A stretch of DNA of 44,728 nt. Source: Escherichia coli. Lineage in GTDB: Bacteria; Pseudomonadota; Gammaproteobacteria; Enterobacterales; Enterobacteriaceae. Where the stretch lies: assembly GCF_003334315.1 (NCBI RefSeq), contig NZ_QOWR01000039.1; one strand, 5' to 3'. The notes below the pieces were generated by a model, which had not been told where the DNA came from, did no database searches, and saw nothing but the letters and a program-made list of their open reading frames with translations. The translations under genes were made by a program, and so were the position numbers. Shown here one piece after another: positions 36,863 through 41,228 of this stretch. Numbering within the stretch: position 1 is the stretch's first letter; each line of letters starts with the position of its first letter.

Positions 36863-37933
36863 TTATTTAATCCGGGCCATCGCGTTTCTCAGTGCCAAAT
36901 CTGCCTCTTCCGTTATATCCAGGCTTTTCTGCAATACCGCCTCTGACCGGGTCAGTGCCTGACGTGCTGCCAAGGGGTTCCGGATATGCTCCATCGTCAG
37001 CATCGTGTCTTCATAGCCCTGCTGACGCCAGATGTCGGTATGTGCCGATGTAAAACTGAGCAGACCGCCACTTTTGCCTTCTTCCCCTGTGTGTTTCAGC
37101 CTTTTCCGGGGACGGATTTCAAGGATTGTGGTGTCCGGAAAAGCCCGGCGATCCCATAAAGAACCGTCACTCAGATGCGTCACAATCACCATATTGCATC
37201 CGGCATCGACCAGAGGCGTTACAGGGGTATTTCCCTGCATATTTCGCCATCCTCCCATCCCACCATCACCGAACATTGTCCCCTGAACCTCACGGGGATG
37301 GAACAACAGGGGCAGTGCGGCTGACGCAAGCAGAGCCTCTTTCTGCTGTCCGCGGGGCAGACTCTGGATATGCTGAAAAACGGCGTTTTTCGTGGTTCCG
37401 GCACCCAGTTCAGCACGAATGCAGTCAATAATATCCTGTATGCCCCCTTCTGTGGGGTACAGCGACACATACAGCGGTAGCCCGTCTGCCAGAGCATCAG
37501 TATCAAGATAATGATCCATCAGCGCTGTCAGAGGCTCATCTGACAACAGCGGCTGAGCCATCGGATTGTCGAAGCCGTTGATTATCGATATATGGCGAAG
37601 AAGTATCGTAAGCAGTGCTCCTGCACGTCCGGGGATCTGGCAGAGGTTCATTGCCTGGAACAATTTTTTCAGCAATGAAAAGTAAACCGATCGGTTTACC
37701 GACAGCACCTGATTATTCCCCAGATGATCCCAGAGCGCCTCCAGGCGTACGGCAGCTTCTGACAGATCGGGAGAGGCCGCGATAATGGCACCATTGAATG
37801 CGCCAATGCTGGCCCCTGAAACCATGCTGATCTGTGTACCACACTCTGCCAGTGCCTTAACCACTCCCGCCTGATAAGCGCCCACCGCCCCGCCACCGGA
37901 CAGCACCAGCCCCGTTTTCATTTCTGTACTCAT
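36863..37933 (-). CDS. patatin-like phospholipase
   Basis: GGGxxG oxyanion motif (SGGGAVG, res 12-18), GxSxG nucleophile (GASIG, Ser42), DGG catalytic Asp (FGDGGMGG, Asp223); start overlaps the upstream gene's stop. Confidence 0.85.
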   Translation of the reverse strand: MSTEMKTGLVLSGGGAVGAYQAGVVKALAECGTQISMVSGASIGAFNGAIIAASPDLSEAAVRLEALWDHLGNNQVLSVNRSVYFSLLKKLFQAMNLCQIPGRAGALLTILLRHISIINGFDNPMAQPLLSDEPLTALMDHYLDTDALADGLPLYVSLYPTEGGIQDIIDCIRAELGAGTTKNAVFQHIQSLPRGQQKEALLASAALPLLFHPREVQGTMFGDGGMGGWRNMQGNTPVTPLVDAGCNMVIVTHLSDGSLWDRRAFPDTTILEIRPRKRLKHTGEEGKSGGLLSFTSAHTDIWRQQGYEDTMLTMEHIRNPLAARQALTRSEAVLQKSLDITEEADLALRNAMARIK

Positions 37934-38835
37934 GCAGCCCCCTTCTGAAATATTTCATCGACCATACTTTCAGAGAGGCGTTCTGCAGAGCAGAGGCGAG
38001 GCATGCGAACCGGTAAGTGTTCTGCAGCCTGCGTGGTTGACCAGATCACCGGATGCTGCTCTTCACTGCACCAGTCTCCCAGCCAGTTAATCGCGTCATG
38101 CCACTCGTTATCTGCCTGCTCCCGGCCCTGACCACCAAGCCAGTCCAGAGTGTTCAGACGCACGGTTGCACTACCGCCACTCTCCTGTGCCATCTGCGTT
38201 AATGCTTTATGTCTGAGAATATCCAGTAGCTGGTTAACCTGGCCTGTTTCGCTCTGACGTATCACATCACCAAACGCGCCCCAGCGAAGCTCTTCAAGTG
38301 CCACATAACAACGTCCGGCAGGGGAAAATGACGCATATCGCCCGGCGCTCCACCATGAGAATATCTGCTCAAGATGTAACTGCGCCCGCTGAACCTGGTC
38401 AACACGGTGGAGTTTTTCTTCAAGATGATTCAGTTTATGGTGAACCTGATCGGCCAGGGTGAGTAACTGCTCCCGCGTATCTGCGGAATAATGCGCCAGC
38501 CTGGCTGTATCACTGACCAGTGAACTGACCCTGTCGTTTACCCGGGTAATCGCGTAGTTTGTGGTGGCAAGTGACGTTGTCATCTCCGTCAGCCAGCGCA
38601 GGGACGCCTCAACGCCCTGTGCAAGCGACGCATTGATGGCATTCTGCCGTGCAGCGCCTTCGCCGGTCAGCCCCTCTTTTAAACGCCGGAAGAACGTGCG
38701 CTCTCCGGCCGTGCGGATATGCTCCTGTGCAACATCGATTCCGTTTGCGAAATCAACCACAAATTTTTCAGGAAGACAGGTGAGTACCTGACATACCCGG
38801 TTATCAGCAATTTGTTGAATAAATGGTGAAGTCAC
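37930..38835 (-). CDS. hypothetical protein, predicted partner of the dynamin-like GTPase
   Basis: 301 aa, GTG start overlapping the GTPase stop and stop overlapping the patatin start; no recognisable catalytic motif. Confidence 0.65.
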   Translation of the reverse strand: MTSPFIQQIADNRVCQVLTCLPEKFVVDFANGIDVAQEHIRTAGERTFFRRLKEGLTGEGAARQNAINASLAQGVEASLRWLTEMTTSLATTNYAITRVNDRVSSLVSDTARLAHYSADTREQLLTLADQVHHKLNHLEEKLHRVDQVQRAQLHLEQIFSWWSAGRYASFSPAGRCYVALEELRWGAFGDVIRQSETGQVNQLLDILRHKALTQMAQESGGSATVRLNTLDWLGGQGREQADNEWHDAINWLGDWCSEEQHPVIWSTTQAAEHLPVRMPRLCSAERLSESMVDEIFQKGAA

Positions 38836-41228
38836 AGCATTGTCTCCAGCTCTTCCCTCAGCGCCTTACTGTCAGTAATGAGCTCAGGAACCCTTTCATT
38901 TAATGCCTGAAGTCGCCCGGTAAGTCGTTCCTGCGCCTGCTGATCGCGTTTATGATCTTCAGAGCTCTGAATCAGCGTGTTACGCAGTTGTTCAACTTTC
39001 TCCCTGAATGCGCAGAAAAAGGCATCGATTTCCTGGCGGACGGGCTGGTTAATATCCTGCTCAATGGATGCCTGCAGCTCCCCGAAATATGCCCGGGTCA
39101 GTGACATAACTTCCTCTCTGACCTTGTTGATATTGATCACGCTGCGACTCACATCCTCGTCATAGTTTTCCCAGCCCAGGTCACTGGTGCCAAACCATCG
39201 ACAAACGGTTCCCCATACGCCACTCTGCCGACGGCGACGGGTGACGGTCTCCGTTCTTTCCTCCATAAGCGCACTCAGATTTATTTTTACCGCGAGCCGG
39301 GTCTGTAACTGGCTGACTGCCGGAAAACTGATTTTTACGGTAAAGCCCTCATCCTCCAGGCGGGCATTGATGCGACCGGCAATGTTTTCTGTGGCGTACA
39401 GGGCCGTGCCACGAAAACCTGTTTCAATCCCGCTGACGATTTTCTCCAGCTCAGGCCGGAACTGTGCTTCAGCCTCACGGTGCAGGCTGGTCACGGTCGA
39501 TTCGATTTGCGTCATCAGTTCAAGGGCTTCCCTGCGATCACTGAATTTTATTTCGGGGCTGTCCGGGGCAAAATCTCGTTTCCTGTAATCCTCCCGGCCC
39601 TGGTTGTTGATACCGGACCATTGAGAAATTTTCCCCCATAATCCGGACTGAGACCTTCGTTGTTCTGCGTCTTCTTCCTCCAGCATTTGCTGTTCTTTGC
39701 GTTTACCGCTTCTGAAATAGTCATTCAGCTCCTCTTCCAGTGAGGTGCAGACCCCCGTCAGTAATTCCCGGGTTTTAGTATCGATCTCCTCCATGGCCAT
39801 TCTGACATCAGTGGTCATCTGCTCCTGACAGTCCGCGATTTCCCGGATATCCGCAAGCAGGCTGGTGATATGCGACTGCAGTGACTGAATGCTTTGCTGT
39901 AGCCCCTGATGGCGTAACAACAGGTATTCACTGATATTTTCTGCATTCTGCATCAGTTTTGCGGCGGCAGAGTCAACCGCCAGTGCCGCAGCTCTGGAAT
40001 GTGAGCTCTGTATGACTTCCGTTATCAGTTGATCGATAAGTGAGCCTTCCCACAGGTCTGTCGCCCCTTCAGTTGCCAGTTCACTGTCTTTACAGACGTA
40101 TTCTTTTTTCATGCAACCGAAGGCACCTCTGATAAAATCATCGACCCAGGCTTCATCAACAGGAAGGGTTCCGTTTTTCCGTAACTCATGAAGCGCACGG
40201 TTAGCCAGGTATGCCTGGCGTGAGGATCCGGGATAAACGCGGGAGGCGGGCAGCACATCGCTGTTCAGCATTGCCGGAACTTTCTGGCGTACGGCATCTG
40301 CCCCATCGCCATTGCGGTCTTTCTCATCAAATTTATTGACCAGTACAAACAGGCGGCCGGCTGATACGTCAGCAATGGCATTAAGCTCTTTACGGACGTC
40401 TTCATCCGCTTTTGAGTTCATCTGGGTGTAATCCATCACAGCCAGAACCGCAGAGGCTTTCTGCAGTTGATCCCGCATCATCACTTCCATCTGCGGTTGT
40501 CCGGCCTCATTAGGGCCGGGGGTATCCAGCAGTGTGAGTGTTCCCTGGCATGCATCCATCCCCACCAGATGGCTGAATTCCACGTCGATCACCGGCAGTT
40601 TCTGCACTTCTGCGTATTCATCAAAAGGAAATTCAGTCCCCATTGCCGCAGCAAGACGAACCAGATCGTTTAACGATGCCAGTCCGGTAAAGATTTCCTC
40701 CTCCCCGTGGTATTCATTTTTGAGCCAGCCATCATCCGTCAGAATATCCAGCAGTTCGCGGGTATCCCCGGTTTGCTGCAGGGTCTGTGCGACCTGCTGT
40801 CCTGCCGGGGTGGCGAGTTTTTCCTGCAGTGTGATTAATAAATTGCGGACAGGCTGAATATGTTCCAGATGGAGAACCGGCTCAGTTTTTCCGGGAACGT
40901 GGCGGATGAGCGTCGGTACAGAGGTCATGGGGCGGTTACGGTTAGGCAGAATTTCCTGCCCCACAATGGCGTTGATGGTGGTTGATTTGCCTGCTTTCAT
41001 CGTGCCGACAACAGCCAGCACCATCTCCCTGCGGGCGGTTTTGATTTGTTCGCCCTCCAGCTCCTCAATTCTTTTCAGTGCTTTCTGTTTATCAAAAAGC
41101 AGTCTGTTTTCGTTCTTACTGTCAGATAACACATCTGGCTCCTCAACCATTTGCCGGAGCAGATTAATGTTCAGTTGCAAAAGTCGGTCGGCTTCATCAC
41201 AAAGCAGGGCGATGTTCTTTTCGTGCAT
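38832..41228 (-). CDS. bacterial dynamin-like large GTPase
   Basis: 798 aa; G1 P-loop GTMKAGKST (Lys81), G3 LLDTPGPNE, G4 LVNKFDE, long helical C-terminal region; AGGAAGG RBS upstream. Confidence 0.85.
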   Translation of the reverse strand: MHEKNIALLCDEADRLLQLNINLLRQMVEEPDVLSDSKNENRLLFDKQKALKRIEELEGEQIKTARREMVLAVVGTMKAGKSTTINAIVGQEILPNRNRPMTSVPTLIRHVPGKTEPVLHLEHIQPVRNLLITLQEKLATPAGQQVAQTLQQTGDTRELLDILTDDGWLKNEYHGEEEIFTGLASLNDLVRLAAAMGTEFPFDEYAEVQKLPVIDVEFSHLVGMDACQGTLTLLDTPGPNEAGQPQMEVMMRDQLQKASAVLAVMDYTQMNSKADEDVRKELNAIADVSAGRLFVLVNKFDEKDRNGDGADAVRQKVPAMLNSDVLPASRVYPGSSRQAYLANRALHELRKNGTLPVDEAWVDDFIRGAFGCMKKEYVCKDSELATEGATDLWEGSLIDQLITEVIQSSHSRAAALAVDSAAAKLMQNAENISEYLLLRHQGLQQSIQSLQSHITSLLADIREIADCQEQMTTDVRMAMEEIDTKTRELLTGVCTSLEEELNDYFRSGKRKEQQMLEEEDAEQRRSQSGLWGKISQWSGINNQGREDYRKRDFAPDSPEIKFSDRREALELMTQIESTVTSLHREAEAQFRPELEKIVSGIETGFRGTALYATENIAGRINARLEDEGFTVKISFPAVSQLQTRLAVKINLSALMEERTETVTRRRRQSGVWGTVCRWFGTSDLGWENYDEDVSRSVININKVREEVMSLTRAYFGELQASIEQDINQPVRQEIDAFFCAFREKVEQLRNTLIQSSEDHKRDQQAQERLTGRLQALNERVPELITDSKALREELETML

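Follow-up and report, generated by a model that had tools for sequence, protein, structure and literature searches.

The window analysed here is a 44.7-kb stretch of Escherichia coli DNA (contig NZ_QOWR01000039.1), and this report concerns three consecutive genes in it, hereafter called the trio. Within the window, the trio genes are all on the minus strand. The first gene (38832-41228, ATG start) encodes a dynamin-like GTPase of 798 amino acids (aa), the second (37930-38835) a 301-aa protein of the YjcZ/RdcB family, and the third (36863-37933, ATG start) a 356-aa patatin-like phospholipase. Both junctions are 4-bp overlaps of start and stop codons: GTGA (in ...CTGTGA...), where the GTG start of the partner gene lies inside the stop overlap of the GTPase gene, and ATGA (in ...GCATGA...). 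The coordinates and junction sequences agree with the initial annotation, which had proposed three minus-strand genes joined by 4-bp overlaps. An identical locus in RefSeq carries the same three coding sequences, named dynamin family protein, diguanylate cyclase regulator RdcB family protein and patatin-like phospholipase family protein. Twenty nucleotides past the patatin stop codon begins a terminator-like, GC-rich hairpin followed by a T-run (36827-36843, minus strand; CACCGCC-TGT-GGTGGTG, then TTTTTCC). Because this element sits just after the patatin stop, the three genes seem to form a self-contained transcription unit.

The 798-aa protein belongs to the dynamin superfamily. It matches Pfam Dynamin_N (1.6e-17) and has a large GTPase domain with four motifs that can be located exactly: G1, GTMKAGKS at residues 75-82 (including K81); G2, RPMT (T102); G3, DTPG at 235-238; and G4, NKFD at 298-301. 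The G1, G3 and G4 motifs had already been recognized as intact in the initial annotation. All four are invariant and identical across 28 trio GTPases and 54 GTPases of the related two-gene, patatin-free type (the pair), to which RdcA/RdcB of E. coli K-12 belongs. Two features separate the same 28 trio GTPases from the 54 pair GTPases. First, the trio proteins carry a basic-hydrophobic insertion of ~40 residues (about 516-552 in the window protein), with a mean net charge of +3.3, a hydrophobic 9-mer inside and a conserved DFDP after it; the pair-clade proteins have about 9 residues at this position. Second, a Trp-rich segment, VTRxRRxSGxWGTxCxWFxTxDWGWExY (about residues 661-688), is strongly conserved in trio GTPases and degenerate in the pair clade. 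Judging by its composition, the insertion may be a membrane-interacting loop. No transmembrane segment or signal peptide was found in any of the three trio proteins (maximum KD19 1.16). The protein had earlier been labelled a membrane-remodelling GTPase; this label is now doubtful, given the lack of transmembrane segments and the fact that RdcA is a soluble regulatory switch (PMC6510439), and what still speaks for it is the basic-hydrophobic insertion, which RdcA lacks.

The 301-aa protein, in which no recognizable motif had been seen at first, is a clear member of the Pfam family YjcZ (PF13990, 4.7e-70), as had been suspected; its PGAP label is "diguanylate cyclase regulator RdcB family". Its model is all-alpha, with a predicted local distance difference test (pLDDT) value of 81.8, and a structure search with this model returned no informative neighbour. 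No relative of the protein has a solved structure. YjcZ is a small family. A profile search found only 484 clusters among 1.84 billion representative proteins, and about 105 of the about 117 full-length representatives resemble the trio type more closely than the pair type.

The third protein matches Pfam Patatin (4.4e-24). It shows the features that define PF01734, namely a Gly-rich oxyanion loop (GGGAVG, residues 13-18), a GxSxG serine (GASIG, S42) and a DG(G/A) aspartate (DGG, D223), and the fold found by Foldseek agrees. The Ser42/Asp223 dyad and oxyanion loop reported previously are therefore intact, and G13-G15, S42 and D223 are invariant in 46 homologues. The AlphaFold2 model (pLDDT 77.6) has a canonical core, a partly hydrophobic insert of low confidence (residues 94-125) and a C-terminal helix of ~60 residues (296-355) with conserved positions. 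The protein is predicted to be cytoplasmic. Its best Foldseek matches are PlpD, CapE, CapV, VipD (solved with Rab5, PDB 4kyi) and ExoU, with a sequence identity to VipD and ExoU of 14-18%. CapE, CapV, VipD and ExoU are latent lipases activated by a ligand or a protein cofactor.

Damaged alleles of the trio recur in E. coli. Truncated patatins make up protein clusters of considerable size: among clusters P0017, P0030, P0072, P0075 and P0086, some proteins retain residues 95-356 only and have lost S42 (354 member sequences), while others diverge past residue 199 and have lost D223, one O157:H7 strain being included. In O145 genomes H9-H16, an IS3 insertion splits the GTPase gene. Together, the truncated patatins and the split GTPase gene are consistent with a costly effector. 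A second class of E. coli patatin alleles (P0013-P0016; 294-295 aa, 72-75% identity) aligns end to end with the 356-aa protein and is about 60 residues shorter, so these proteins have an internal deletion.

The closest characterized relatives of the first two proteins are encoded by the housekeeping pair RdcA/RdcB. The trio GTPase is 33% identical to K-12 RdcA (also called YjdA or CrfC) and the YjcZ protein 30% identical to K-12 RdcB (YjcZ), both over the full length, which bears out the resemblance to CrfC/YjdA-YjcZ that had been noted in the initial annotation. In both systems, the gene of a dynamin-like GTPase (about 740-800 aa) is translationally coupled to a downstream gene for a YjcZ-family protein (about 300 aa). 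The G1-G4 motifs are identical, and RdcA K82 and T103 correspond to trio K81 and T102. The window locus is nevertheless not the ordinary crfC-yjcZ locus with an unrelated neighbour, a possibility that had been raised and is now excluded. The full-length match of the trio GTPase to NCBIfam CrfC (NF007368) scores 556 bits against an equivalog cut-off of 1146. This score and the low identities of both proteins indicate that the locus is a paralogue and not the housekeeping one. Gene order agrees with this. A YjcZ alignment was searched against one genome of each GTDB species, and the 79 loci obtained were sorted by open reading frame (ORF) calling and phmmer. Neighbours yjdM and/or proP were shared with K-12 by 52 of 53 pair loci and by no trio locus, and the patatin-free pairs all came from Enterobacteriaceae, at the fixed position between yjdM and proP. 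Unlike this two-gene operon, the trio is mobile, spans Gamma- and Betaproteobacteria, and includes as its third member a strictly linked patatin gene that overlaps the YjcZ stop codon.

In E. coli K-12, RdcA and RdcB bind the MASE1 domain of DgcE and so activate this diguanylate cyclase (PMC6510439). The RdcA K82A mutant is still functional and the T103D mutant is dead (PMC6510439). These phenotypes indicate that nucleotide-free RdcA is the active form and that GTP is inhibitory. By analogy, the trio is probably also a switch governed by nucleotide state, which would bind an enzyme and activate it.

The patatin gene is a constant part of this arrangement. It lies directly downstream in 36 of 36 non-syntenic YjcZ loci examined, from Gamma- and Betaproteobacteria, and the order dynamin, YjcZ, patatin is kept in 31 of 31 trio loci from the genome and metagenome scans. 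Thus, the three genes are strictly linked in other genomes, which answers the question of co-occurrence posed at the outset. The trio was found in Escherichia, Pantoea, Erwinia, Serratia, Budvicia, Pseudomonas, Marinospirillum, Allochromatium, Thiodictyon, Macromonas, Aquaspirillum, Gallionella, Comamonadaceae, Paenacidovorax and Yanghanlia. When the search was started from the patatin, the trio also turned up in Pseudomonas fluorescens, Vibrio vulnificus, Pectobacterium, Plesiomonas and a metagenomic Pseudomonas-like lineage. Among distant relatives of YjcZ (26-32% identity), five of five are followed directly by a patatin gene. One of the loci, L102 (positions 7001-9630 of a 1.44-Mb metagenome-assembled contig), encodes a 532-aa YjcZ fusion followed by a patatin, adjoining parE/parC; the N-terminus of the fusion contains DUF3944 and a hydrophobic, transmembrane-like stretch, and no dynamin gene lies within 7 kb. 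This suggests that the YjcZ-patatin pair can work with another input module. Since the distant relatives all keep the patatin, and L102 does so next to no dynamin gene, we conclude from these gene arrangements that YjcZ-patatin is the invariant core and that the patatin, far from being a passenger, would be the module's functional output.

The trio is both common and mobile. It occurs in 2446 of 5426 complete E. coli genomes (~45%), in up to five copies per genome. Integrases and a relaxase are among its neighbours in some genomes, and a 62%-identical variant is carried by about 25 plasmids of Klebsiella, Enterobacter and E. coli. On one of these, an IncFIA plasmid of Enterobacter hormaechei (L096, 6009-10991), the variant lies among metabolic cargo near ccdAB, with IS1 immediately upstream of a shortened GTPase coding sequence (2232 bp).

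A neighbour-joining tree of concatenated GTPase and YjcZ sequences (40 taxa, 1057 columns, 200 bootstraps; unrooted) places the pairs in a single clade with 100% bootstrap support. This pair clade (L032-L087) joins the trios of Budvicia aquatica (L013) and Serratia oryzae (L017) with 99.5% support, and under midpoint rooting it falls inside the diversity of the trios. The trio also exceeds the pair in taxonomic spread and sequence diversity. Taken together, the grouping, the midpoint root and the wider spread of the trio suggest that the RdcA/RdcB pair of Enterobacteriaceae may descend from a trio-like ancestor that lost the lipase, the tree being unrooted with no usable outgroup.

In about 15 of 27 lineages, the trio lies within 8-10 kb of restriction-modification (RM), BREX, DRT or Dnd/Dpd-like genes or of WYL/BrxR regulators. 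The Vibrio trio has BREX genes (BrxL, PglZ) nearby and is immediately preceded by a WYL regulator gene in the same orientation; BrxC (1385 bits) is found near the trio of Pantoea eucrina; and the L090 trio is accompanied by a type I RM system, Mrr and BrxR. A type III RM system is found near the trio in E. albertii, a DRT RT-PolA gene in a Comamonadaceae genome, and a type I methyltransferase and mad3 in Pseudomonas. Other trio neighbours include GajB/NERD-UvrD-like and DpdF/BrxHI-like helicases and DndB/TGT. The WYL/BrxR regulators stand beside the trio in five lineages (L004, 3682-4650; L003, 1752-2624; L014, 373-1272; L029, 3827-4864; L090, 13179-14051), which belong to Vibrio, Pseudomonas and Paenacidovorax; none accompanies the E. 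coli copies. Large ORFs flanking the trio were also compared with PADLOC (E<1e-5), using ORFs beside housekeeping pairs as controls. Matches were obtained for 16 of 50 trio-flanking ORFs and 0 of 10 controls (one-sided Fisher p=0.033, small sample). The association of the trio with defence genes is suggestive.

The individual components of the trio are of known kinds, namely the RdcAB switch, the patatin effector and dynamin-linked defence, and it is their combination that is uncharacterized, with two mentions in passing in the literature searched. Operons homologous to the trio rank with the most strongly induced genes of E. coli MP1 when it is lysogenic for Kapi1; they adjoin EcoKI and Druantia, are ~30% identical to RdcAB, and were named a "putative dynamin phage defense system" in a 2026 transcriptome paper (PMC12922286). 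A 2026 genomics paper on O118 merely lists the trio genes, and a domain-centric discovery paper makes no mention of the trio.

Considering the linkage, the conserved catalytic residues, the mobility, the defence neighbours, the RdcA/RdcB-DgcE precedent and the induction by Kapi1, we favour the following explanation, to which we give about an even chance: the trio is an RdcA/RdcB-type GTPase switch that gates a cytoplasmic patatin effector and causes abortive infection or another form of defence against invaders. In a resting cell, the GTPase would be GTP-loaded and the phospholipase kept inactive. An infection-linked cue, for which a fall of the GTP pool, a phage protein or inner-membrane damage are candidates, would move the GTPase into a hydrolysed or nucleotide-free, oligomerising state. 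The complex would then go to the inner membrane, possibly via the trio-specific basic-hydrophobic loop. Coupling of the enzyme to the switch would be provided by the YjcZ protein, acting as the lipase adaptor, together with the patatin's long C-terminal helix, so that the nucleotide state of the GTPase serves as the gate. Once activated, the lipase would cut membrane phospholipids, and the infected cell would die before phage release, or another invading element would be blocked. The physical coupling of the patatin to the switch, the trigger, the membrane targeting and the anti-phage outcome are steps that we infer.

Several observations weigh against this explanation. First, the binding of the patatin to the switch is suggested by gene linkage alone, and the characterized relative, RdcA, is a non-immune regulator (PMC6510439). 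Second, strong PADLOC matches taken alone give p=0.14, which is not significant with the small control set. The trios of Pectobacterium and Plesiomonas are flanked by island-backbone genes and not by known defence systems, and the same is true of the trio described here. The setting of an anti-phage module, as claimed in the initial annotation, is real for many lineages in the form of defence islands, while the flanks of the trio in this window consist of island-backbone genes. Third, PADLOC v2 (2023) has no model for the trio, and the three proteins gave no significant match with it. Fourth, no phage-protection or other phenotype of the trio is reported in the searchable literature. The word "dynamin" occurs 0 times in the papers on E. 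coli pangenome functional selection and on the defence-island repertoire, and it is also absent from the DefensePredictor paper. Because the trio is so prevalent in E. coli, the functional selection probably sampled strains that carry it, and its silence is therefore notable. Finally, searches of 50,697 phage records and 2.9 million viral contigs (IMG/VR) turned up no YjcZ gene.

A more specific version of the switch is possible but not probable. According to it, the trio would be an immune switch of guanine-nucleotide state whose GTP-free form is active, and the RdcA/RdcB (CrfC) pair of Enterobacteriaceae, which is associated with biofilm and replication, would be its domesticated, lipase-less descendant that now targets DgcE. 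A collapse of the GTP pool caused by phage, or a phage factor forcing nucleotide release, would then free the membrane-destroying patatin.

The trio could instead be a non-immune module of membrane stress or lipid remodelling, in which the GTPase senses or repairs inner-membrane damage or promotes vesiculation and the patatin trims or recycles damaged phospholipids, so helping repair and not killing the cell. Membership of the dynamin superfamily, the basic-hydrophobic insertion that is absent from the soluble RdcA clade, and the presumed action of the patatin on lipids would all fit, and so do the precedents of DynA of Bacillus subtilis (inner-membrane damage) and LeoABC (vesiculation, proposed), both cited in PMC12922286. 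However, a repair system is expected to be part of the core genome and vertically inherited, while the trio is accessory, multi-copy, borne by islands and plasmids, and often found in defence islands. Moreover, none of the three proteins has a transmembrane segment, and patatin alleles as commonly truncated as those of E. coli fit a costly effector better than a repair enzyme. We consider this explanation unlikely.

We regard as quite unlikely a role in selfish maintenance or competition between elements, in which the patatin would be a toxin restrained by GTPase and YjcZ and freed when the element is lost or a rival enters, any anti-phage effect being incidental. This explanation overlaps in mechanism with the gated effector that we favour. 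It accounts for the trio being cargo of a CP4-type island beside CbtA/CbeA toxin-antitoxin, antirestriction and RadC genes, for plasmid copies beside ccdAB, and for induction by a resident prophage. Against it, about 1450 aa of regulator is far above the size of known addiction modules, the GTPase motifs are strictly conserved, and the recurrent WYL/BrxR regulators and RM, BREX and DRT neighbours are typical of immune systems.

Two further explanations can be dealt with briefly. It is highly improbable that the trio is a second RdcA/RdcB input into cyclic di-GMP signalling, acting on DgcE or another diguanylate cyclase with the patatin as an unrelated passenger: the PGAP name of the middle gene and the full-length homology to RdcA and RdcB speak for it, but the identity is only 30-33%, the CrfC score is less than half of its cut-off (556 vs 1146 bits), the patatin is linked with overlapping codons in every non-syntenic locus of two proteobacterial classes, and the trio extends well beyond the family Enterobacteriaceae to which the housekeeping pair is confined. 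We likewise give hardly any credence to the idea that the patatin, helped by accessory proteins, is a phospholipase effector secreted against eukaryotic or bacterial cells, like ExoU, VipD, PlpD or Tle. PlpD, VipD and ExoU are indeed among the nearest solved folds, and Hcp/VgrG genes lie 5 kb from the trio in the Plesiomonas locus L008. However, an unrelated transporter operon separates those type VI secretion genes from the trio, and neither a signal peptide nor a link to an autotransporter, PAAR or VgrG was found. Moreover, the patatin is translationally coupled to cytoplasmic proteins, and free-living Gallionella, Allochromatium, Thiodictyon and Macromonas also carry the trio.

Comparison with known systems may help to place the proposed GTPase-gated lipase. 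Eleos (formerly "Dynamins") consists of LeoA and LeoBC, two consecutive dynamin-like GTPases with anti-phage activity (Millman et al. 2022 preprint). Like the trio, it places a dynamin-superfamily GTPase in defence islands, and its P-loop is required for defence. However, Eleos has two GTPases and no lipase, whereas the trio combines one GTPase with the non-GTPase YjcZ protein and a patatin. Membership in Eleos is rejected because there is a single GTPase gene and the PADLOC LeoBC model gives 19.8 bits, confined to the P-loop region (residues 29-89), with no single stretch passing by itself. Both the definition and the LeoA/LeoBC profiles thus set the trio apart from Eleos, which had earlier been said to carry no patatin. 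DynA of B. subtilis is another bacterial dynamin-like protein tied to phage resistance, at the population level (cited in PMC12922286; Millman et al. 2022 preprint). Unlike the trio GTPase, this two-headed fusion dynamin has a housekeeping role, stabilises the membrane and thereby delays lysis, and has no YjcZ or lipase partner.

On the side of the lipase, the CBASS effectors CapV and CapE resemble the trio protein in their patatin fold and Ser-Asp dyad. Both are latent lipases of the cytoplasm that, once activated, abort infection by degrading the membrane of their own cell. Their signal is a cyclic nucleotide, while the activator proposed here would be a protein GTPase switch. The trio is not a CBASS system: its three-gene, terminator-closed operon contains no CD-NTase gene, and the patatin reaches 18.6 bits with NCBIfam CBASS_lipase (cut-off 200) and no more than 20 bits with the phospholipase effector models of PADLOC. 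VipD of Legionella and ExoU of Pseudomonas are patatin-like phospholipases as well, and each needs a bound protein cofactor to become active, namely the GTPase Rab5 for VipD and ubiquitin for ExoU. These enzymes are secreted and activated by host proteins; in contrast, the trio lipase and its presumed activator are encoded together and would act in the producing cell.

Within the window, a putative O-antigen/gnd/his region is followed by sbcB-sbmC-yeeA and then by an island of the CP4-44 type. In K-12, the order of CP4-44 is yeeP-isrC-flu-yeeR-yeeS-yeeT-cbeA-cbtA. Here, the trio follows a YeeP-like GTPase ORF (41446-42357, minus strand, 303 aa, GTG start) and therefore occupies the slot of flu, as had been proposed at the outset. 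In a RefSeq genome that is 100% identical over 36800-41300, the YeeP-like gene next to the trio is recorded as a pseudogene with a frameshift. On the other side, the trio was thought to be bordered directly by a YafZ-like gene. This requires a correction, as two small minus-strand ORFs (36044-36727 and 35618-36028) lie between the patatin and DUF932 (YafZ-like) genes, and antirestriction, RadC, YeeT and CbeA/CbtA genes follow. Both small ORFs lie past the terminator-like hairpin, have signal-peptide-like N-termini and a lower GC content (about 45-48%), and have no match in Pfam or NCBIfam. The larger of the two (225-227 aa) is also found 3' of the trio in other E. coli contigs (L088, L089). 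Because the E. coli MP1 paper counts five co-induced genes on island 8 (PMC12922286), the two small ORFs may be co-regulated with the trio despite the hairpin between them.

The upstream intergenic region (41229-41445, minus strand, about 216 bp) contains a weak sigma-70-like site, with the -35 at 41339 and the -10 ending at 41310, and three CGATCG(TT) repeats. The promoter match is not above chance, with 6.1 such matches expected and 5 obtained. The repeats, at 41289, 41302 and 41320 (region 41289-41325), make up 3 of the 10 CGATCG sites of the whole window; two are ATCGATCGTTA direct repeats and one is a near-palindrome, and they overlap the weak -10-like element. The cluster is common only to the E. 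albertii copy (L009) and is not conserved upstream of trios in genera other than Escherichia. These repeats may represent a putative operator, perhaps tied to the induction reported in Kapi1 lysogens. Rfam detected no isrC-like or other RNA near the operon; elsewhere in the window, gathering-level matches were the His operon leader (20133-20256, 131.6 bits) and the small RNA STnc240 (22995-23069, 68.2 bits). The first 9 kb of the window (31-40% GC) adjoin ORFs that agree with gnd, ugd and wzz in order and size, and on these grounds are a putative O-antigen cluster.

Some Pseudomonas, Pantoea and Erwinia lineages have a fourth gene 13-60 bp past the patatin gene (L090, 11090-11797; L021, 9993-10730; L041, 10004-10828; L011, 10034-10498; L003, 9090-9428). 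These genes are mutually homologous and weakly match NCBIfam PRK10236 ("acidic protein MsyB"; 57-67 bits, cut-off 395). Such an MsyB-like gene is rejected as a core member, as it is absent from E. coli and most other lineages.

If the trio is functional, it would be among the commonest unannotated immune candidates in E. coli, being present in nearly half of the complete genomes and often in several copies, and it would also occur on Klebsiella and Enterobacter plasmids and in Pseudomonas and Vibrio islands. If the proposed mechanism is true, a protein GTPase switch would be a third route by which patatin suicide effectors are armed, beside the cyclic nucleotides of CBASS and the host cofactors of ExoU and VipD. 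The genetics of RdcA leads to a specific prediction, namely that K81A and T102D mutants of the trio GTPase would differ in behaviour. The proposal would also give a concrete function to the small, structurally uncharacterized YjcZ family, and an evolutionary origin to the debated housekeeping protein CrfC/YjdA/RdcA.

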